Shown here piece by piece: positions 5,764 to 19,077 of a DNA stretch of 32,000 nucleotides (positions are counted from its first letter, which is position 1; every line of letters starts with the position of its first letter). A program made the translations under genes and the position numbers. The notes beneath the pieces were generated by a model that saw only the letters and a program-made list of their open reading frames with translations, ran no database searches and had not been told where the DNA came from. This stretch comes from Dickeya dadantii NCPPB 898 (lineage in GTDB: Bacteria > Pseudomonadota > Gammaproteobacteria > Enterobacterales > Enterobacteriaceae), in assembly GCF_000406145.1 (NCBI RefSeq), contig NZ_CM001976.1, forward strand, positions 1,465,315 to 1,497,314, given 5' to 3'.

Positions 5764-6598
5764 CACCGACTCCATTATTGAAATAAAAAACGCAGGGCAA
5801 AGGGCCGCCGTCTCACCGGTAGGTAAGGTAAATAGAAAATTAGAATCAATAAGATAATGCGTACATCAGCGCTTTTCTGGATACGTTGTGGTGTCCGGAA
5901 AATAATGCTGACAGGTCAGGTTTTTCGATATTATCAAGTAGTGTTATGTTGTCAATAACGACAAAAAATAAGATTTATATTCTGGATGTGATGGTTTTTA
6001 TTCGTTCGCGATGTCTTCTATTAGGTGTTTTTTAATATAAAAGTCTGTTATTTTTTTAAAAACGAATATCAGGCCGATTTTTATAAAAATAAAGGCGAGT
6101 AAAAATTAATAGGGTTATTTTAGTGCGATGCTCGCGTTATTTTGGTGCTGTTGCACATTACTGGGTCGGCCGCATTGTATTTCCACGAGGAATGTTAAAT
6201 TACCTCAAAAGACTATTCATCATCACGTTAATAAAAAGCACGGATAACGCGCAAGGTGAGGATTGATTTTACCCTGGACAAACAGGGTGCACTAAAATGG
6301 ATCGAACATTGGCGCACTCGGCAGCGTAATATTGAGCATCAGGAGGACGCAGATGCCGGTACGATAGCGGGCTTTTTTACAGAACTGAGCGTTTTGTCAC
6401 AGATTTATTATAGTCTGTCCCCAATGTGGCAACAGGTTAAGGATGTATGCTGCATGTTGAGAGATCACATTTTATCTGGCGGAATACCCCGTTGCGCCTT
6501 TTAGGACAGCGGGAGACGGTGGAATGGCAATAGTGGGACACCGTCTGAAATATCAGGTAGCATGTCTATATAGAGTTGTCGTCTTATTGAGAACGCAT

Positions 6599-8158
6599 AT
6601 GTCAAATAATAATAATTCTCTGTTCAGTGCTCTGCGTTTCCTTCGTTCTTTGCCATTTCATACTTCTCCCGGTATTACCATGATGGCGTTTCTGGCCGTC
6701 TGTAGCCTGATTTTTGTGACCACAAGTATTTGGAATTTTCTGGATTCCTATCAGCGTATGTTGGTGGATGCGGAGAAAAACGTGACTAACCTGTCCGTGG
6801 CGATGTCACGTCAGGCGGAAGATACGTTTGTGCCGATTGAAGTGGCGATCGACGACATGCTGCGGGAGTTGTCGCAAACCGGCATGCTGGATTCCACGCG
6901 AGTGAAAAACGTTCTCGATACCCATCGCGCGGTGCTGCCGCAACTGGTGGGTTTCTACCTGTTTGACGAAAAGGGAAACCTGATTTCCTCTACCGGCAAT
7001 GGGCCGCTCTATATTTATAATGCCGGCCGGCGGGAATATTTTACCTGGCTCAGAGACAATAATACCACGTCGTTGTTTATCGGTAAGGTTAACGTCAGTA
7101 CGATAACCCGCAGACGTATTATTCCGGTGGCTAAACGAATAAATGGACCGAATGGCGAATTCAAGGGCGTTTTCCTTGCCACTATCGACCATAATTATTT
7201 CGGTAATTTCTACAGTTATTTCAGCCTGGATTATGACGGCGTGCTGTCATTGATGAATGCGGATGGCCATGCCATTTATCTTTACCCCAATCGCGAACAA
7301 TATATTAATAGCAATTTCGCTGACGGCGGCCTGTTTGAAAAGTCCCGGCTGGAACAGGGTAGCGGTAACGGTATCTGGCGCACCACGCTGGATAACCGGG
7401 TTCGTATTGTCGGCTACGTTAAACTGAAACGCTATCCGCTGGTGGTGGCGGCCAGTCTGGACAGAGGCGCGCTGCAGACGCGCTGGCTGACGGAAAACAT
7501 TTCGGCCATGCTGCTCAACATCATGGTGCTGTTCGCCATGTTTGTTCTCGGCGGCTTCGTTCTGAAACAGATCCGCTTAACAGTGAAAAATAAAGAGGCG
7601 ATCAGCCGCCTGCATCAGGAGGAAAGCGACAAGAACAAAGTGCTGCAAAAACTGGCGCTGGTTGACCCGCTCACCAAACTGGCCAATCGCCGACGTTTCG
7701 ATCTTTATCTGGAGCAGTCGCTGACCCGCGCCCGCGAAGAGGGCGGGCTCCTGTCGCTGATCATGCTGGATGTGGATTTCTTCAAACGTTACAACGATAC
7801 CTACGGCCATGTGTTGGGCGACCGCTGTCTGACCCAACTGGGCGGCGTGTTGAACGGGCTGCTTTTGCCTGACGGCGCTCTGGCCGCTCGTTATGGCGGC
7901 GAAGAGTTCGCGATTATTTTGCCGGGAATGAACGGTGAACAGGCGGCGGTGTACGGTGAGCGAGTGGTGGAAAGTGTACGCAGATGTGCGATACAGCATC
8001 AGGCCTCGCTGTTGCCCCGTCTGGTGGTGACGGTGAGCGTGGGGGTGTATTCGCACTCCAGCGACAACCCCTGCGATATTCAGCGCCTGAAAGAAGGGGC
8101 CGATCAGGCGTTGTATCTGGCGAAGAAAAAAGGCCGTGACCGCTGCGTGCGGTTATAG
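6599..8158 (+). CDS. Membrane sensor diguanylate cyclase (periplasmic sensor domain + GGDEF)
   Basis: C-terminal GGDEF domain (DPLTKLANRRRFD, MLDVDFFKRYNDTYGH, RYGGEEFAIILPG, ADQALYLAKKKGRDR). Two hydrophobic helices (MMAFLAVCSLIFVTTSIW; AMLLNIMVLFAMFVLGGFVL) bracket a roughly 270-aa extracytoplasmic region that looks Cache-like but is unverified. Start chosen at ATG 6599 (MSNNNN); ATG 6524 is possible. Confidence 0.85.
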   Translation: MSNNNNSLFSALRFLRSLPFHTSPGITMMAFLAVCSLIFVTTSIWNFLDSYQRMLVDAEKNVTNLSVAMSRQAEDTFVPIEVAIDDMLRELSQTGMLDSTRVKNVLDTHRAVLPQLVGFYLFDEKGNLISSTGNGPLYIYNAGRREYFTWLRDNNTTSLFIGKVNVSTITRRRIIPVAKRINGPNGEFKGVFLATIDHNYFGNFYSYFSLDYDGVLSLMNADGHAIYLYPNREQYINSNFADGGLFEKSRLEQGSGNGIWRTTLDNRVRIVGYVKLKRYPLVVAASLDRGALQTRWLTENISAMLLNIMVLFAMFVLGGFVLKQIRLTVKNKEAISRLHQEESDKNKVLQKLALVDPLTKLANRRRFDLYLEQSLTRAREEGGLLSLIMLDVDFFKRYNDTYGHVLGDRCLTQLGGVLNGLLLPDGALAARYGGEEFAIILPGMNGEQAAVYGERVVESVRRCAIQHQASLLPRLVVTVSVGVYSHSSDNPCDIQRLKEGADQALYLAKKKGRDRCVRL

Positions 8159-11864: not shown

Positions 11865-12092
11865 ATGCTGGAATTACGGCCCAACTGTGAATGTTGCGAC
11901 GCCGATCTGCCGCCGGATTCATTGCTGGCGCGGATTTGTTCGTTTGAGTGCACCTTCTGCGCGGATTGCGCGGAGGATAAACTGAGCGGTCGCTGCCCTA
12001 ACTGCGGCGGCGAACTGGTCCGTCGGCCGATCCGGCCGGCGGAGAAACTGGTCAATAACCCGGCGTCGACCCGGCGGGTGCTGGCCCGGTAA
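11865..12092 (+). CDS. DUF1272-family Cys-rich small protein (zinc-ribbon-like)
   Basis: MLELRPNCECCDADLPPDS..ARICSFECTFCADCAEDKLSGRCPNCGGELVRRP matches my recollection of DUF1272. There are ten Cys in the first 47 of its 75 aa. AGGAG SD lies 7 nt upstream, and the gene starts 50 nt after efeB on the same strand. Confidence 0.75.
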   Translation: MLELRPNCECCDADLPPDSLLARICSFECTFCADCAEDKLSGRCPNCGGELVRRPIRPAEKLVNNPASTRRVLAR

Positions 12093-12209: not shown

Positions 12210-13715
12210 CTAGTCATTAATGCGCGGATGCTGGGCAACCAGCAGTTGGCGTTTCGCTTCCAGCTCGGCGATTTGCTGCGTGATATCCTCGATTTTATGT
12301 TCGATATTGTCGTGGTGCTCCTGCAAAATTTCCTTCGCTTCCGACAGGTCGGAGGCGGCCGGCGTGGCGCCCTTCAGCGGCTTGTTGGCCGTTTCTTTCA
12401 TGAACAGGCCGGTCAACAGGCCGATAACGGCGATCACCATCAGGTAGTACGCCGGCATATATAGGTTCTGACTGCTTTCCACCAGCCAGGCGGTGACGGT
12501 GGGCGTCAGGCCGGCGATCAACACCGAGATATTGAAAGCGCTGGCCAGCGCGCTATAGCGAATGTGCGTCGGGAACAGCGCGGGCAGGGTTGACGCCATC
12601 ACGCCGGTAAAAGCGTTCAGGATCACCGCCAGCATCAGCAGCCCAAGAAAAATCAGGCCGATAATGTCGCTGTTGATCAGCATAAAGCTCGGCACCGCCA
12701 GGAAAAACATGGCGACGCTGCCGATAACCACGAATGGTTTGCGGCCAAAGCGGTCGCTGAGCAGGCCCATCACCGGCTGCACGAACAGCATGCCGATCAT
12801 GATGGCGATGATGATCAATACGCCATGGTTTTCCGAGTAATGCAGGCTGTGCGACAGGTAGCTTGGCATGTAGGTCAGCAGCATGTAATAGGTCACGTTG
12901 GTGGCGATCACCAGCCCGATGCATACCAGCAGGCTTTTCCAGTGGTGGGTGGCGATTTCCCGAAAAGAGACGCCCGGTCCGGCTTTCAGCCCGTCGCGAT
13001 CGTTCTGCTCCAGTTTCTCCACGTGTTGCCGAAACGCGGGGGTTTCTTCCAGCGCGTGGCGCAGGTACAGGCCGATGAGGCCGAGCGGCAGCGCCAGGAA
13101 GAACGGCAGGCGCCAGCCCCATTCCAGAAACGCCTGTTCGCCGATAAGGGTGGAAATCAGCACCACCACGCCGGCGCCCAGCACAAACCCGGCGATGGAG
13201 CCGAAATCCAGCCAACTGCCCATGAAACCGCGTTTGCGGTCGGGAGAATATTCCGCCACGAAGATCGACGCGCCGGTGTATTCGCCGCCGACGGAGAACC
13301 CCTGCGCCATTTTTGCCAGCAGCAGCAGGATCGGCGCCCAGATGCCGATGCGTTCGTACGACGGTATCAGCCCGATGCTGAAGGTGCTGATGGACATGAT
13401 GATAATGGTAATGGCGAGGATTTTCTGGCGGCCGTATTTGTCGCCCAGTGCGCCGAAAAACACGCCGCCCAGCGGGCGGATCAGAAACGGCACCGAGAAG
13501 GTCGCCAGCGCGGCGATCATCTGTACGCCGGGATCGGCGCCGGGGAAGAACACCTGGCCCAGCGCATAGGCGACGAAGCCGTAGACGCCAAAATCGAACC
13601 ACTCCATGGCGTTGCCGAGCGCGGCGGCGGTAATGGCTTTGCGCAGACGGCCGTCATCAATGATGGTGACATCGTCCAGCGCGATAGGTTTTACACGTTT
13701 TCTCTTCAATTTCAT
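12210..13715 (-). CDS. proP: Proline/glycine betaine:H+ symporter ProP (MFS osmosensor with C-terminal coiled coil)
   Basis: Collinear near-identity to E. coli ProP (KPIALDDVTIIDDGRLRKAITAAALGNAMEWFDFGVYGFVAYALG ... QHPRIND), including the C-terminal heptad region EDITQQIAELEAKRQLL. Confidence 0.95.
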   Translation of the reverse strand: MKLKRKRVKPIALDDVTIIDDGRLRKAITAAALGNAMEWFDFGVYGFVAYALGQVFFPGADPGVQMIAALATFSVPFLIRPLGGVFFGALGDKYGRQKILAITIIIMSISTFSIGLIPSYERIGIWAPILLLLAKMAQGFSVGGEYTGASIFVAEYSPDRKRGFMGSWLDFGSIAGFVLGAGVVVLISTLIGEQAFLEWGWRLPFFLALPLGLIGLYLRHALEETPAFRQHVEKLEQNDRDGLKAGPGVSFREIATHHWKSLLVCIGLVIATNVTYYMLLTYMPSYLSHSLHYSENHGVLIIIAIMIGMLFVQPVMGLLSDRFGRKPFVVIGSVAMFFLAVPSFMLINSDIIGLIFLGLLMLAVILNAFTGVMASTLPALFPTHIRYSALASAFNISVLIAGLTPTVTAWLVESSQNLYMPAYYLMVIAVIGLLTGLFMKETANKPLKGATPAASDLSEAKEILQEHHDNIEHKIEDITQQIAELEAKRQLLVAQHPRIND

Positions 13716-14319
13716 AAAGTGACTAACCTTTTATTCTCGTGACATGAAAAGGGAGGTGAAGCGTGGGGGAAAAACACCGTCTTGCCGGGTATGACGTCAG
13801 GTGCTATCGGGTAGTGTGGTGAGGGTGTGGCGGACAGCAGCCCGCAAAACGTATTCACGTCGGCGCGCCGGCAACATGGCGCAACACCGTCTCATTCTTC
13901 CCCTTGAGCATCTCTGCCGGGCCGGGGCATCAAAATGATGCAGGCTCGGCGTGATCGCGTACTACGGCCTGTTGCGATGCTGAACGAGCAGGCCGTTGTC
14001 AATACACATTGTTGTTAATAATATCACAATTTTTTAATTTATAAAAATAATGGTGATTGTTTGTCATTTTATGTGGATTTAAATATCGATTATTTGGCTT
14101 TTTACTGGTGTTTTATGCTGGTTCTGAGTGGGTTTTTCTGGTGGCTGAAATGGGGGGATAACCACGGACTTAACTGGAAAAGCAAAGGTGAGCCGTCGTG
14201 TTTGATATCAATAAAGGTAGGCGAAACGTTACGCAGAGGTTGTAAACGATGGATGCCTGCTGTGGGCGAGGAGCCGAAGTAGGCGGCTATAAGATGACTA
14301 GTAAGACAATGGCGATGCA

Positions 14320-15318
14320 CTATAGGTAATCATCACGGCGATTACGTTCATATCCCCTGCGTCCTCTTACCGCCTGTTCATTGTTGAGCGCAATATAGCG
14401 CTCAAATCGGTCACTAAGCTGCGCAAGTTTCAGTGGCAACTCTTTGGTGACAAAGGCTTCCGGGATCTCAAAATCATCCAGATGCCCTGCTAGAAATTGA
14501 TGCACTTTTTCCAATACGCCTAATAGTGTAATGTTGTTACTTTGCTGCTTCTCCAATAACGGTCCCTGCCAGGTGTGCCAGAATGCTTGCTGACGAAGAC
14601 AATTCTTATTGCCCGCCAACTGCCAGAGTTCCATAAACATTTCCCGAGCAATCCAGAACGGCTCAACATCGAACGCGTCGATAAGAAAGTAGTAACACGG
14701 GATTTTAAGCGCGTTGATTCGGGCGATCTCAATTTCAGGATCACGACGCAAATCAATTAGGTTACTGAAGCGGGAGCGCATACAGGCAATGGGATTTAAC
14801 ACCCTGATCTTTTCGCTCATTTCCGGGATACCTGGGCCGGTTGCTTCCACATAAAACGGGGTGGTATGGAGGTAAAGTTTATCCCCCAGAAAATCAGAGC
14901 GGTCAAAGCCTCCGGGCCGATCGATAATATCTACCACATTTGGCTCGTCAGGTGCATTCGGCACAGCAAACAAACGATCATCATCCCGCTTAATATCATG
15001 CGTGTCCTTATCGATAAGCATGAACTGAGCTAGGGATGGTGGCTGGCCGTCTTTGTTCTCCCACGTATTTACATTGAGTGTTTTAGCTATGGCCGCAATG
15101 TCGTCTTTCCGGGCGCTGTAGTCGCAGTCAACAGAAGTAGTGAGACGCTCATCAGGCAACCTATCGCCGTATCGAGCATGGTAATAGGATATCCAGTATC
15201 GCACGGCCTGGCCGCCAACTGTGATCACCGCATGTTTGAACTGATCGGCGTTGCAGATCAACTGCTGATTTAGCAGATACACCTGCTCATCAGGGGGGAT
15301 AACGTTTTGAACAGACAT
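14320..15318 (-). CDS. Uncharacterised 332-aa protein; candidate Pol-beta-fold nucleotidyltransferase (AbiEii-like architecture?)
   Basis: Long ORF in a low-GC islet. By-eye NTase signature: VITVGGQAV (GG at nt 15211-15216), then TTSVDCDY (DxD at nt 15121-15129), further acidic clusters (VVDIIDRPGG), and a helical C-terminal half. ATG 15318 is preferred over the track's TTG 15357, which would read through a hairpin. No family confidently recognised. Confidence 0.6.
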   Translation of the reverse strand: MSVQNVIPPDEQVYLLNQQLICNADQFKHAVITVGGQAVRYWISYYHARYGDRLPDERLTTSVDCDYSARKDDIAAIAKTLNVNTWENKDGQPPSLAQFMLIDKDTHDIKRDDDRLFAVPNAPDEPNVVDIIDRPGGFDRSDFLGDKLYLHTTPFYVEATGPGIPEMSEKIRVLNPIACMRSRFSNLIDLRRDPEIEIARINALKIPCYYFLIDAFDVEPFWIAREMFMELWQLAGNKNCLRQQAFWHTWQGPLLEKQQSNNITLLGVLEKVHQFLAGHLDDFEIPEAFVTKELPLKLAQLSDRFERYIALNNEQAVRGRRGYERNRRDDYL

Positions 15319-15322
15319 AAAA

Positions 15323-15345
15323 AAACCATCAGTGGATGATGGTTT
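15323..15345 (-). terminator. Hairpin + U-tract between the 51-aa ORF and the 332-aa ORF (leaky or partial terminator?)
   Basis: aaaccatca (15323-15331) and tgatggttt (15337-15345) form a perfect 9-bp stem with a 5-nt loop. On the minus strand it is followed by four more U (15322-15319), making U7 with the stem, and then directly by AUG (15318-15316). The stem is AU-rich, so strength is uncertain. Confidence 0.45.
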
Positions 15346-15366
15346 ATTGTGCCTCAAAGTTCGTGG

Positions 15367-15522
15367 TCAGGCAAAATCGATCTCATGGGCAAACTTATTG
15401 CTGGCTGACTTGCTGAAGCGACTTTTCACGGCAGGTTGATACCCGGCACGACCAAGCGCAACTTGCACTGCTACGGCATTGTAGCGTTTATGCTGCTTCT
15501 GTTTAGCTTGTGCGGGAGACAT
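15367..15522 (-). CDS. Unlisted 51-aa basic small protein (hand-translated; below ORF-track cutoff)
   Basis: ATG 15522 to TGA 15369-15367 gives MSPAQAKQKQHKRYNAVAVQVALGRAGYQPAVKSRFSKSASNKFAHEIDFA. There is a weak AGGT SD-like element 9 nt upstream. It is followed by the hairpin/U-tract and co-oriented with the 332-aa ORF. No family recognised. Confidence 0.4.
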   Translation of the reverse strand: MSPAQAKQKQHKRYNAVAVQVALGRAGYQPAVKSRFSKSASNKFAHEIDFA

Positions 15523-15591
15523 AATTTAGTACCTGACGGTAGTTATAAACAAATGAGTTGCAGCAACTATACGTCACGAATCTTCGTTACG

Positions 15592-15607
15592 CAATAGTAT
15601 ACTATTG
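15592..15607. promoter_or_regulatory. Perfect 16-bp palindrome (CAATAGTATACTATTG) containing a -10-like TATACT; candidate operator/promoter of the islet module
   Basis: The sequence is exactly self-complementary. On the minus strand, TATACT (15601-15596) has TACACA 16 nt upstream as a possible -35. It lies 70-85 nt upstream of the 51-aa ORF start. Smaller dyads flank it: gttgcAgcaac 15557-15567 and gtactTTCAGagtac 15621-15635. Confidence 0.4.
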
Positions 15608-15916
15608 ATGCAACCACTGTGTACTTTCAGAGTACAAAGTAAGTCGTTAACTCCTGGATAGAAGTACGGATATCATTGTTTGCCAGATACTCATACATTC
15701 ATTTCCAAAGAACTTTTCTCTCCTTTACCTTCGACACAAACGTTTATCTTCTCGCAGTTAAACGGTAGACAAAATTTGGCCACGATATGAGAGCTTCCCA
15801 GAACCACTCTAAACTTCCCCCCCCCTGGCACTAAGCAAACACGGGCAGCAGGGTCTGCTTTAAACATACAAGGATCGGACCTGGCGGTCATGGCGTGATG
15901 GGATAACCGCATAATG

Positions 15917-15947
15917 AGAGCGGCGACGTTCAGCCTGTCGCCACTCT
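15917..15947 (-). terminator. Possible terminator hairpin downstream of the RND permease gene
   Basis: agagcggcgac (15917-15927) pairs with gtcgccactct (15937-15947), giving an 11-bp stem with one mismatch and a 9-nt loop. It starts 8 nt downstream of the stop at 15955-15957. Only a weak U-rich tail follows (CAUUAUGCGGUUAU). Confidence 0.4.
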
Positions 15948-15954
15948 GATGGGG

Positions 15955-18900
15955 TTAGTGTGGGGCGTTTACGTGTGTTGTCCGGCGTTTTTCACGCCAG
16001 CGGTCATAACGCTCCTGCACGCTCATGACCGCCACGAAAAACACCGGCACGAAGAATACCGCCAGTACGGTGGCGCTGACCATACCGCCGAACACGCCGG
16101 TGCCGATGGCGTGCTGGGTTTCCGCGCTGGCGCCCGACGCCACCATCAGCGGCACCACCCCCAGCGCAAACGCCAGCGAGGTCATCAGGATCGGGCGCAG
16201 GCGCAGGCGCGCCGCCGTCACCGCGGCGTCCACCAGTTCATGCCCCTGGTCGCGCAGCTGTCTGGCGAACTCGACGATCAGGATGGCGTTCTTGGCCGAC
16301 AGACCGATGACGGTAATCAGCCCCACCTTGAAGAACACGTCGTTCGGCATATCGCGCAGGATCACCGCCAGCACCGCGCCGAGCAGCCCCAGCGGCACCA
16401 CCAGCATGACCGACAGCGGAATCGACCAGCTTTCATACAGCGCCGCCAGCACCAGAAACACCACTACCATCGACAGCAGCAGCAACATCGGCGCCTGCGC
16501 GGCGGATTGCCGTTCCTGCAGCGACTGCCCGGTCCATTCCACGGTGAAGCCGGGCGGCAACTGCGCCGCCAGCCGTTCCATCTCCGCCATCGCCGCGCCG
16601 CTGGAGACGCCGGGCGCGGCGCTGCCGGAGATTCGTGCCGCCAGGAACCCCTGATAGCGCGTCAGTTGCAGCGGGGTATCGCTCCAGACCGGCGTCACCA
16701 CCTCTTTCAGCGAAACCATGCCGCCCGCGGTGTTGCGCACATACAGCCGGAGCACATCGTCCAGTTGCATCCGCGCCGGCGCGTCGGCCTGAATGATCAC
16801 CTGCTGCATACGGCCGGCGTTCGGGAAGTCGTTCACGTACAGTGAGCCGATGGCGGCGGACAGCGTCTCGCTGAGGGTGCTGAACGACACGCCGAGCGCT
16901 TCCGCCTTTTGACGGTCGATATTCAGCCGCACCGTGCTGCCGGGCGGCAGGCCGTCCGGATAAACCCCGGCGACGATGTGGCTCTGCGCCGCCAGCGTCA
17001 ACAGTTTGGTTTCCGCCGCCTTGAGCGCGGCGTAACCCTGACCGGATCGGTCCTGCAGGCGCAGGGTAAAGCCGGACGAGGTGCCCAGCTCATCGATCGC
17101 GGGCGGCATCAGCGTCATGGCGGTACCCTCGCGGATCGACGACATCGCCTGCTGCGCCAGCGCCACTTCACCCTGCGCGGTGGCGCCGTCGCGGGCCGAC
17201 CAGTCCTTCAGCGTGGTGAACGCCATCGCCGCGTTGGGGCCGGAGCCGGAGAAGCCGAAGCCGAGAATCGACATGTTGGACGCAATACCGGGGCGCGAGG
17301 CGATGTGCTGTTCGTAGGCCTTGACCACGTCCCGCGTGCGCGCTTCGGTGGCGTCCGACGGCAGTTGGATCGAGGTCATGAAGTAGCCCTGATCCTCTTG
17401 CGGCAGAAAGTCGGACGGCAATTCCCGGAATATCCACGCCAGCGCGCCGGTCAGCGCGGCGAACAGCAGCAACATGCTGCCGGAACGGCGCAGCAGCGCG
17501 CGGGTGCCGGCGGCGTAATGTTGCGTCAACTGTTCGAAACGGCGGTTAAAGCTGCGTTTCTCATGATGACCGTCGGCAACCGGCGTCAGCAGCGTGGCGC
17601 ACAGCGCAGGGGTCAGCGTCAGCGCCAGAAACGCCGAGAACAGGATTGATACCGCCATCGACAGGGTAAATTGCCGGTAGATGACCCCCACTGAACCGCT
17701 GGCGAACGCCATCGGGATAAACACGGCCGACAGCACCAGCGTGATGCCGATAATCGCGCCGGTGATCTCCTTCATCGCCCGGGTGGTCGCCGCCTGAGGC
17801 GACAGCCGTTCCTGCGCCATCAGCCGCTCAACGTTTTCCACCACCACGATGGCGTCATCCACGATGATGCCGATCGCCAGCACCATGCCGAACATCGTCA
17901 GCACGTTGATGGAGAAACCGGCCGCCAGCATCACCGTAAAGGTGCCGAGCAGGGCGATGGGGGCGACAATCGCCGGGATCAAGGTATAACGCACATTTTG
18001 CAGAAACAGGTACATCACCAGAAACACCAGCACCATCGCTTCGGCCAGCGTCCTGACCACCTGCTCGATGGAGATTTTGACGAACGGCGCGGTGTTGAAC
18101 GGCAGCGAATAGCCCATCCCGGCGGGCATGGACGGTTTCAGCTCGGCCATGCGCTGCGCGATCGCGGCGGCGGTGCGCACCGCATTCGCGCCCGGCGCCA
18201 GCTGAACGGCGGCGGCGGTGGCGTCCTTGCCGTTTTCACGCACGGAAAAACCGTAGGACTGCGCGCCCAGTTCGACGCGCGCCACGTCGGCCAGCGTCAC
18301 CCGCGAGCCGTCCTCCCGGGCACGCAGCACGATGGCGGCGAATTGCTCCGGGTTTTCCAACTGCCCTTGCACCGTCAGCGGAATGGTCACCCGCTGCCCC
18401 GGCAGGGTAGGCGCGTCGCCGACCCGTCCGGGGGCGATTTGCGCGTTCTGCTGGGTGATGGCGGTCGACAGGTCGTTCATGGTCAGGCCGTAGGACAGCA
18501 GCTTGTTCGGGTCGACCCAAATGCGCATCGCCTGTTCGGCGCCGAATAGCTGGACGCGGCCGACGCCGTCGACCCGGCGCAGCTCCTCGACCACGTTACG
18601 CGCCATGTAGTCGCTCAGCGCCACCTGGTCGAAACGCCCGCTATCGGAGGTCAGGCTGACCAGCAGCAGGAAGCCCGATGAGGCGGACTCCACCTGCAGG
18701 CCGTTTTGCCTGACCGTTTGCGGCAGCCGGGGTTCGACCGATTTGATGCGGTTTTGCACGTCCACCTGCGCCAGCTCCGGGTCGGTGCCCGGCTTGAAGG
18801 TGATGCTGATCTGCGCCGAACCGGAGGTGTCCACCGACGACTCGAAATAGAGCAGGTTTTTGACGCTGGACAGCTCGCGTTCAATGAGCCCGACCACCGC

Positions 18901-19077
18901 ATCATTCATGGTCTGGGGCGTCGCGCCGGGGTAAGAGGCGGTGATGCTCACCGTCGGCGGCGCCACCGACGGGTAACGGGCGATCGGCAACTGGGGAATG
19001 GCGATGGTTCCCAGCAGCACGATGAACAGGGCGATCACCCAGGCGAATACCGGGCGATGGATAAAAAATTGCGGCAT
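15955..19077 (-). CDS. RND (HAE1, AcrB/MexB-type) multidrug efflux permease
   Basis: 1040 aa. MPQFFIHRPVFAWVIALFIVLLGTIAIPQLPIARYPSVAPPTVSITASYPGA parallels the AcrB N-terminus, and the 12-TM/large-loop organisation is typical of the family. Confidence 0.93.
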   Translation of the reverse strand: MPQFFIHRPVFAWVIALFIVLLGTIAIPQLPIARYPSVAPPTVSITASYPGATPQTMNDAVVGLIERELSSVKNLLYFESSVDTSGSAQISITFKPGTDPELAQVDVQNRIKSVEPRLPQTVRQNGLQVESASSGFLLLVSLTSDSGRFDQVALSDYMARNVVEELRRVDGVGRVQLFGAEQAMRIWVDPNKLLSYGLTMNDLSTAITQQNAQIAPGRVGDAPTLPGQRVTIPLTVQGQLENPEQFAAIVLRAREDGSRVTLADVARVELGAQSYGFSVRENGKDATAAAVQLAPGANAVRTAAAIAQRMAELKPSMPAGMGYSLPFNTAPFVKISIEQVVRTLAEAMVLVFLVMYLFLQNVRYTLIPAIVAPIALLGTFTVMLAAGFSINVLTMFGMVLAIGIIVDDAIVVVENVERLMAQERLSPQAATTRAMKEITGAIIGITLVLSAVFIPMAFASGSVGVIYRQFTLSMAVSILFSAFLALTLTPALCATLLTPVADGHHEKRSFNRRFEQLTQHYAAGTRALLRRSGSMLLLFAALTGALAWIFRELPSDFLPQEDQGYFMTSIQLPSDATEARTRDVVKAYEQHIASRPGIASNMSILGFGFSGSGPNAAMAFTTLKDWSARDGATAQGEVALAQQAMSSIREGTAMTLMPPAIDELGTSSGFTLRLQDRSGQGYAALKAAETKLLTLAAQSHIVAGVYPDGLPPGSTVRLNIDRQKAEALGVSFSTLSETLSAAIGSLYVNDFPNAGRMQQVIIQADAPARMQLDDVLRLYVRNTAGGMVSLKEVVTPVWSDTPLQLTRYQGFLAARISGSAAPGVSSGAAMAEMERLAAQLPPGFTVEWTGQSLQERQSAAQAPMLLLLSMVVVFLVLAALYESWSIPLSVMLVVPLGLLGAVLAVILRDMPNDVFFKVGLITVIGLSAKNAILIVEFARQLRDQGHELVDAAVTAARLRLRPILMTSLAFALGVVPLMVASGASAETQHAIGTGVFGGMVSATVLAVFFVPVFFVAVMSVQERYDRWREKRRTTHVNAPH

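Follow-up and report, generated by a model that had tools for sequence, protein, structure and literature searches.

A mobile gene pair of Dickeya dadantii encoding a probable DNA polymerase β-fold nucleotidyltransferase and a 51-residue partner: a candidate toxin–antitoxin or abortive-infection-type module

Gene Organization of the Locus

The window analyzed here is a stretch of 32,000 nucleotides from Dickeya dadantii NCPPB 898 (contig NZ_CM001976.1, positions 1,465,315 to 1,497,314), and the subject of this study is a two-gene unit of approximately 1.5 kb on its minus strand. The second gene (14320–15318) starts with ATG and encodes a 332-residue protein with a predicted nucleotidyltransferase fold, hereafter called the enzyme; it is supported by the list of open reading frames (ORFs), by conservation, and by an AlphaFold model. 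A 345-residue version started at a TTG codon (to 15357) was rejected in favor of the ATG start because the homologues begin with MSVQ or MPVQ. The first gene (15367–15522, minus strand), located 48 bases upstream of the enzyme gene, encodes a conserved basic partner of 51 residues (MSPAQAKQKQHKRYNAVAVQVALGRAGYQPAVKSRFSKSASNKFAHEIDFA). The original prediction, made from the sequence alone, had described the enzyme as an orphan, divergent nucleotidyltransferase, possibly AbiEii-like, with an atypically small upstream partner.

In the translation of 14320–15318, V31-I-T-V34 is followed by G35-G36 (VGGQA, residues 34–38) and then by S62-V-D64-C-D66-Y. Two acidic stretches lie at residues 103–114 (DKDTHDIKRDDD) and 128–137 (VVDIIDRPGG). 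The VITV-GG element, D64/D66, and both acidic clusters are therefore present as originally described. The enzyme consists of an N-terminal α/β catalytic domain (residues ~1–190), which also holds D130 and P176..S182-R183..N186, and a C-terminal helical domain (residues 194–330).

Predicted Fold and Conserved Residues of the Enzyme

The AlphaFold2 model of the full-length enzyme, calculated with the family alignment, has a predicted local distance difference test (pLDDT) value of 89.7 and a predicted template modeling score (pTM) of 0.87. It begins with helix 9–22, strand 31–33, helix 36–45, strand 65–68, and helix 71–80, continues with more strands, including 128–132, and ends with helix 176–188 and helices only thereafter. 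Residues 176–330 are helical throughout, in agreement with the all-helical C-terminal half that had been predicted. Both signatures of the DNA polymerase β (Pol β)-like superfamily are found in the model: hG[GS], as strand 31–34 followed by a helix, and [DE]h[DE]h, as D64-C-D66-Y with strand 65–68. A candidate third carboxylate is D130, which is placed on strand 128–132 and is acidic in 87 of 91 aligned members (see below). The G36-to-D64 spacer is indeed longer than usual, as had been noted: it comprises 27 residues with two short inserted helices and lies outside the canonical Pol β range of 9–13.

When the full-length model was compared with the Protein Data Bank using Foldseek, the poly(A) polymerases of Megavirus and Mimivirus were on top (E 0.01–0.08) and the top three matches were nucleotidyltransferases, the remainder being helical-repeat noise. 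Because this noise swamped the search, residues 1–192 were modeled separately (pLDDT 88.9), and the best 17 matches of this model were nucleotidyltransferases without exception, including TM1012, ANT(2'')-Ia (Foldseek probability 0.9, TM-score 0.46–0.49), CCA-adding enzymes, Cid1, TUT1, TdT, and cGAS. Each of these matches, like the top three of the full-length model, is weak (E 0.01–0.6). Pol β, OAS3, and FAM46C appeared lower in the same list, and a viral structure library gave no informative match to the enzyme. An hhalign comparison of the family profile with ANT(2'')-Ia, whose sequence was confirmed against PDB 4wqk, placed helix 1, the strand-GG element, and DxD in register (E 0.085). 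Repeated weak Pfam matches among the 91 members went to DUF2204 (PF09970; four members, best E 5 × 10−4), NTP_transf_8 (PF12281; two, 2.6 × 10−4), and DUF6036 (PF19502; two, 6.6 × 10−3). These three are uncharacterized nucleotidyltransferase families that the window protein itself never matched, and all of the matches are below the gathering thresholds; the only other Pfam family matched by more than one member was DUF6904. Since the fold matches agree with one another despite weak individual E-values, the enzyme is very probably a nucleotidyltransferase of the Pol β fold whose GG-to-DxD spacer is long.

A search of 5.8 billion proteins returned 70 relatives of the enzyme, all from Enterobacterales, all 300–335 residues long, and all named hypothetical. 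Dickeya comes first (96%), followed by Yersinia, Pectobacterium, Erwinia, Klebsiella, Pantoea, Providencia, Photorhabdus, and further genera. When 1.84 billion representatives were searched with a profile, 355 proteins were retrieved, including a second tier of ~240–290 residues with the same motifs. Scanning of GTDB species genomes with one peptide pattern yielded 353 loci of this distant tier, whose hosts are Myxococcota, Sphingomonadales, cyanobacteria, Planctomycetes, Desulfobacterales, and others. The word orphan is thus apt for the annotation of the enzyme, as no profile matches it, but not otherwise, as it has many homologues.

In the family alignment of 36 members (35–96% identity), G35, G36, Q37, A38, S62, D64, D66, D103, D130, D133, R183, and N186 are invariant. 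In a superfamily alignment of 91 sequences, with a mean column identity of 22%, the sole invariant columns are G36, Q37, W42, D64, D66, and P176, while G35 (90/91), A38, and N186 are all conserved in more than 90%. Position 62 is Ser in 79 members and Thr in the other 12; position 183 is Arg or Lys in all 91, and the acidic residue at position 130 is kept in 96%. Because G36, D64, and D66 are invariant at such a low mean identity, the GG and DxD motifs are, judging from the alignments, the core of the enzyme family, far beyond chance. Conservation of GG/DxD had been named as a touchstone of the original prediction, and its reading of these residues as a Pol β signature holds with both aspartates and G36 present in 91/91. 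The broader proposal of a divergent nucleotidyltransferase agrees with the conserved motifs, the fold model, and the weak profile matches to nucleotidyltransferase families, and the AlphaFold and Foldseek analysis that it had called for revealed a nucleotidyltransferase-like fold, although through individually weak matches.

The Small Partner Protein

The 51-residue partner is listed in RefSeq as a hypothetical protein (WP_167401380.1, WP_000074143.1, and WP_000074142.1; Dickeya, Raoultella, Erwinia, and E. coli). An ORF of 50–59 residues occupies the same upstream position in all 10 enterobacterial lineages examined (loci L001, L005, L008/L009, L093/L094, L095, L097, L098, L102, and L104), with enzymes down to ~32% identity; the atypically small upstream partner of the original prediction is thus a lasting feature of the locus. 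Common to the enterobacterial small ORFs are K-x-[KR]-Q-H-x-x-Y, A-x-x-x-G in the middle, and [SN]-F-[AFN] at the C-terminal end. Substitutions between close copies fall mostly at third codon positions, e.g., 15 of 26 in comparison with L008.

In the distant tier, a partner of ~60 residues was recovered with its own hidden Markov model (HMM) in 56 of 70 analyzable loci. In 51 of the 70 it is the immediate upstream neighbor, on the same strand, and in 16 loci it overlaps the enzyme gene by 4 nucleotides. Its consensus is ...FDPxERAREKQRSREEDARALASGEKSREQLRRENGxFxF..., and its family comprises at least 535 clusters, none of them annotated. Alignments of the enterobacterial and distant partners fall on the same region, A-L-x-x-G, each time (EIASGQKS in L102 vs. 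ALASGEKS), which we take as a lead only.

Some loci have other arrangements. Seven loci of cyanobacteria and planctomycetes (L053, L054, L059, L075, L086, L091, and L092) carry a different upstream partner of ~70–95 residues containing …AQxIVExTLYPQLW… and a strongly acidic C-terminal tail, and in two Desulfobacterales loci (L051 and L052) the ~60-residue partner is located downstream of the enzyme gene. At L105, a 402-residue homologue (P0236), with no small upstream ORF called, lies between IS605 tnpA/tnpB and a gene encoding an AbiJ_NTD4 domain, surroundings that hint at a defense-island setting.

Regulatory Sequences of the Operon

The region between the two genes contains a hairpin (15319–15345, minus strand) with a 9-bp stem at 15345–15323 (AAACCAUCA/UGAUGGUUU) and a U-run that leads into the AUG of the enzyme. 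It was detected by a terminator scan and by RNA folding (z = −2.5), and it looks like an intrinsic terminator. According to per-sequence folds, a hairpin with a U-run touching the enzyme AUG is present in eight of the 10 lineages, and in L001 a similar hairpin is found ~100 nucleotides upstream of the enzyme start. The arms differ between lineages yet stay complementary: ACCAUCA/UGAUGGU; ACCCUCU/AGAGGGU (L097); and GCCAUCUU/AAGGUGGC (L093). These compensatory changes were judged from individual RNA folds, as MAFFT did not align the loops in register. Shine–Dalgarno-like purines (GAUGG, GGUGG, and GAGGG) are present only in the 3' arm of the hairpin. Such an element is expected to depress expression of the enzyme at both levels, transcription and translation, in relation to the partner.

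A conserved 5' region precedes the small gene at 15523–15653 (minus strand), as identified by a promoter scan and by sequence. It contains a predicted σ70 promoter on the minus strand, with the −35 element TACACA at 15623–15618 and the −10 element TATACT at 15601–15596. A perfect 16-bp palindrome (CAATAGTATACTATTG; 15607–15592, minus strand) lies over the −10 element and is likely an operator. The 118 nucleotides upstream of the small ORF are 79–89% identical across hosts, and the palindrome arms are preserved. Rfam gave no family match in 13700–16000.

Distribution, Mobility, and Decay of the Module

The module occupies a low-GC islet (14291–15818; GC ~0.45–0.48 vs. ~0.6 in the flanks), the limits of which are given by DNA identity, and it is bordered by proP (12210–13715) and an AcrB-type pump gene (15955–19077), with efeUOB upstream of the islet. 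Positions 14291–15818 share 85.6% DNA identity with L005, and 14327–15653 share ~83% with IncF plasmids, the flanks being unrelated both times. Elsewhere, the module is flanked by argA/recD (Erwinia), ugd/arn (L005), and lldD (one E. coli chromosome), and the plasmid copies are segments bounded by insertion sequences (ISs) amid the toxin–antitoxin genes pemIK, relE, and higBA. A tblastn search of PLSDB found the module on 1033 plasmids (790 from Klebsiella, 124 from Escherichia, and 57 from Enterobacter), 772 of which are predicted to be conjugative. With its varied insertion sites, its plasmid copies, and its low-GC islet, the object of the original prediction behaves as a mobile accessory module.

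The block shared with L005 reaches ~165 nucleotides further upstream (15654–15818) than the plasmid-shared block and overlaps a 73-residue ORF (15691–15912); this extension may represent additional regulatory DNA or what is left of a larger ancestral element. In Serratia (L093/L094), the module adjoins a phage-type integrase gene, and an ORF of 598 residues with no family match follows it.

The module is also found in 379 of 5426 complete E. coli genomes (7%). Both genes are present in ~123 of these records. In ~100 E. coli chromosomes, including that of BL21(DE3), an intact small ORF remains together with the promoter region, while the enzyme gene is IS-truncated and carries an internal stop; ~128 others, including Nissle 1917, have only a C-terminal remnant of the enzyme gene. 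In BL21(DE3) (L099, 3716036–3716695), WP_000074142.1 is intact, the enzyme is a pseudogene, and IS remnants lie around them; other B strains are alike. An intact small ORF next to a broken enzyme gene is consistent with the partner being harmless and the enzyme either toxic or dispensable.

Two alternatives to a toxic enzyme can be judged on these data. The first is that the pair is a non-toxic regulatory or repair unit, acting for example in RNA 3'-end tailing or through a signaling nucleotide, or that it is inert IS-carried cargo. ISs do flank the pair on plasmids and decay is common, but inert or merely auxiliary genes of this kind agree poorly with catalytic residues that are strictly conserved across phyla, with the tight partner linkage, and with a bare 1.5-kb two-gene block that enters unrelated sites, as is typical of self-stabilizing modules. 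We regard this explanation as rather unlikely.

The second alternative reverses the roles in a type VII-like manner: the nucleotidyltransferase would protect the cell by modifying the small protein, as toxin or substrate, or another factor. Nucleotidyltransferase antitoxins are known, since MntA nucleotidylylates HepT. The conserved Tyr and Ser of the small protein (KQHxxY and SFA) could accept a nucleotide, and the downstream position of the partner in the Desulfobacterales loci is in line with this order of roles. That the small protein is a toxin dependent on the enzyme is nevertheless disfavored because the ~100 E. coli chromosomes described above retain the small ORF and its promoter with the enzyme gene destroyed. 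The small-gene-first order and a hairpin throttling the second gene also fit an antitoxin followed by a toxin, so that reversed roles appear very unlikely.

Comparison with Known Nucleotidyltransferase Systems

Searches of Pfam, NCBIfam, and PADLOC with the enzyme gave no significant match, and a sequence search of the Protein Data Bank gave nothing significant either, the sole match being AbaSI (4par_B, E 0.8). When two family profiles were compared with the PDB sequences, no chain was significant, and hence no MenT or AbiEii chain. Twenty remote homologues scanned one by one against Pfam contained no domain. The enzyme does match phrog_19559, a group of unknown function, along its full length (E 7 × 10−202), while tblastn against 50,697 INPHARED phage records found no copy. 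In the searchable literature, there was no paper mentioning the RefSeq accessions or phrog_19559 and nothing useful on DUF2204, DUF6036, or NTP_transf_8. The original prediction had stated that the protein could not be placed in any named family, and these searches bear this out; the profile search that it proposed revealed no Pfam family for the window protein. The enzyme and both partner families are absent from Pfam, NCBIfam, and PADLOC, of unknown function in PHROGs, and unmentioned in the searchable literature, yet they are very common.

The specific relatives that had been suggested fared less well. For AbiEii/DUF1814, not one of the 91 members is matched by PF08843 or the PADLOC AbiE models, even at a cutoff of E ≤ 10. 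The family lacks the Arg of motif II as well as KLxAaxxR and +DxxD, and there is a hydrophobic residue four positions before D64. The best 50 structural matches contain no MenT or AbiEii, and the partner is not of the AbiEi type. A relationship to MNT or CD-NTase/SMODS proteins is likewise unsupported: no Pfam or PADLOC profile of these groups matches any of the 91 homologues, and the module lacks the adjacent effector gene of CD-NTase (CBASS) systems.

Four DUF1814 motifs were defined by Dy et al., and the GG-to-DxD spacer of AbiEii is x15 (PMC3985639). Motifs I and II are common to all Pol β enzymes. Like the MenA1–MenT1 and AbiE systems, the module is bicistronic with the small gene first, mobile, and patchy in distribution (PMC11375011, PMC7450476, PMC3985639). 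The enzyme also resembles the MenAT and AbiE toxins in its Pol β-type hGG and S/T-x-D-h-D motifs, in the basic residue conserved on a later helix, and in its helical C-terminal portion. However, no sequence or profile relation to DUF1814 is detectable, the spacer is 27 rather than 15 residues, and the later helix reads P-x-x-C-L-x-S-[RK]-x-x-N instead of KLxAaxxR. The 51-residue partner is unrelated to MenA1, MenA3, and AbiEi, and there is no winged-helix antitoxin of the AbiEi/MenA3 type upstream.

It could be argued that the enzyme is a true, extremely divergent AbiEii/DUF1814 member whose antitoxin has been replaced. The shared motifs and helical half would agree with this, as would a spacer above the canonical length, as in AbiEii (PMC3985639), and three members do bear the UniRef name "Nucleotidyltransferase (AbiEii toxin ...)". 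These names carry no evidence, though, and NCBI names all members hypothetical. With no match to PF08843 or PADLOC AbiE in any of the 91 members, no PDB chain found by profile, the diagnostic motifs missing, and the weak matches going to other nucleotidyltransferase families, we consider such membership highly improbable. Judging from these sequence comparisons, the enzyme family is a large, undescribed one that is separate from AbiEii/DUF1814.

The best structural matches of the N-terminal domain are ANT(2'')-Ia (AadB) and TM1012-type proteins (PDB 4wqk, 5cfs, and 2ewr), which show the GG/DxD motifs in equal register. These matches are weak (E 0.04–0.09, TM-score < 0.5), and the enzyme has an additional β-hairpin (residues ~103–127) and a further helical domain of ~140 residues, is always accompanied by a protein partner, and carries no resistance annotation. 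As only this weak fold and hhalign likeness was found, with no Pfam or NCBIfam match, membership of the aminoglycoside/lincosamide nucleotidyltransferase family was rejected.

A related question is whether the enzyme could still be a small-molecule modifier of this general kind that gives resistance to an antibiotic or a natural toxin, with the small ORF as a regulator or leader. The TM-scores are best for ANT(2'')-Ia, hhalign aligns its catalytic motifs with those of the enzyme, the gene is abundant on clinical plasmids of Klebsiella, E. coli, and Enterobacter, and a terminator-like hairpin before the gene recalls attenuation-controlled resistance genes. Against this, no resistance nucleotidyltransferase profile of Pfam or NCBIfam matches, and the AMRFinder rows of PLSDB flag the nearby sul1 rather than the enzyme gene. 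The family is mainly environmental (Myxococcota, Sphingomonadales, and cyanobacteria), and its tie to a small partner, often with a 4-nucleotide overlap, is not a resistance-gene layout. Frequent pseudogenes in E. coli and a 140-residue helical domain absent from ANT(2'')-Ia also speak against resistance, which we therefore judge unlikely.

With MntA–HepT, the module shares a mobile two-gene organization containing a minimal nucleotidyltransferase. It differs in that there is no HEPN partner, the enzyme gene is the larger one and comes second, and a basic protein of 51 residues acts as the partner. Since both the fold and the architecture have precedents, the module is not categorically new.

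Proposed Function of the Module

Taken together, the conserved catalytic core, the obligatory pairing across phyla with a very small, often translationally coupled gene, the throttling hairpin, the mobility of the bare unit on conjugative plasmids and into varied sites, and the survival of the partner alone fit a toxin–antitoxin type of module. We give about an even chance to the possibility that the ~1.5-kb unit works as a toxin–antitoxin or abortive-infection-type system in which the enzyme is the effector, in the manner of AbiE or of MenA1–MenT1, where a partner of 7.4 kDa is enough (PMC11375011).

In such a module, one promoter under the palindromic operator would drive first the 51-residue protein and then the 332-residue enzyme. 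Mg2+ would be bound by D64 and D66, both on β2, together with D130 from a later strand, with GG at the β1/α2 turn and R183/N186 on the next helix. The enzyme might then add nucleotides to a cellular target, which by analogy would most plausibly be RNA 3' ends, e.g., tRNA acceptor stems, and growth would stop. It would be kept harmless by the small partner and by the hairpin, which would hold transcription and translation of the enzyme gene below those of the partner gene.

A candidate for the neutralization step is partner-induced auto-phosphorylation of S62, proposed because the invariant Ser/Thr-x-Asp matches the phosphoacceptor layout of MenT1, MenT3, and AbiEii. The 7.4-kDa MenA1 neutralizes MenT1 by inducing auto-phosphorylation of T39, which is near D41 (PMC11375011). 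This pair corresponds to S78/D80 in MenT3, to S67/D69 in MenT4 (PMC7450476), and to T65 with D67/D69 in AbiEii (bioRxiv 10.64898/2026.01.19.700257; PMC3985639). The S/T-x-D feature is not universal, since ANT(2'')-Ia has His in the place of S/T62.

Several observations weigh against a toxin–antitoxin function. The small protein has no likeness to a known antitoxin and no family match in Pfam, PADLOC, NCBIfam, or PHROGs, and homology between the enterobacterial and distant partners is not demonstrable, as neither HMM nor hhalign comparisons were significant. No known defense or toxin profile matches any of the 91 members, and the 50 best matches of each Foldseek search include no MenT, AbiEii, or JHP933 structure. 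No individual fold or profile match of the enzyme is significant (Foldseek with residues 1–192, E 0.04–1; best overall, E 0.01–0.04; hhalign, E 0.085). Finally, neutral cargo would be just as likely to decay in E. coli chromosomes.

A wider proposal, which we hold only tentatively and consider somewhat doubtful, is that the module represents a new, widespread two-gene class apart from DUF1814, in which a protein of 50–60 residues controls a Pol β-fold enzyme in a plasmid-addiction or anti-phage role. It would span more than 1000 sequenced plasmids of enterobacteria and hundreds of species from Myxococcota, Sphingomonadales, cyanobacteria, and other groups. Control in such a class could be exerted, for example, through auto-phosphorylation of S/T62 or through the C-terminal F-A/F-x-F tail of the partner entering the active site.

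If the enzyme is indeed a toxin, a new nucleotidyltransferase toxin family with a minimal partner would join the toxin–antitoxin and defense repertoire. The module is carried by ~1000 IncF-type plasmids of Klebsiella, E. coli, and Enterobacter and by 7% of complete E. coli genomes, and the profile libraries (Pfam, NCBIfam, PADLOC, and annotated PHROGs) miss the enzyme. Because it is so common on plasmids, a toxic module could aid the persistence of clinical plasmids or phage resistance. It would also be a comparison case for the recently proposed rule that nucleotidyltransferase toxins are switched off via partner-induced auto-phosphorylation at S/T-x-D. Even a non-toxic pair would be a large, conserved, and unannotated enzyme–partner family with clear catalytic residues. 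The module is of relevance to the fields of toxin–antitoxin systems, phage defense, and plasmid biology.

Other Features of the Window

Two ORFs of 73 residues (14061–14282, plus strand, and 15691–15912, minus strand) match no family and are unlikely to be genes. Another low-GC patch lies at 6001–8158 (GC 0.445 at 6001–7000) and contains a dCache-GGDEF diguanylate cyclase gene (6524–8158, plus strand), which may be a further horizontal acquisition. Between efeB and proP, a gene on the plus strand (11865–12092) encodes a Cys-rich DUF1272 protein of 75 residues.

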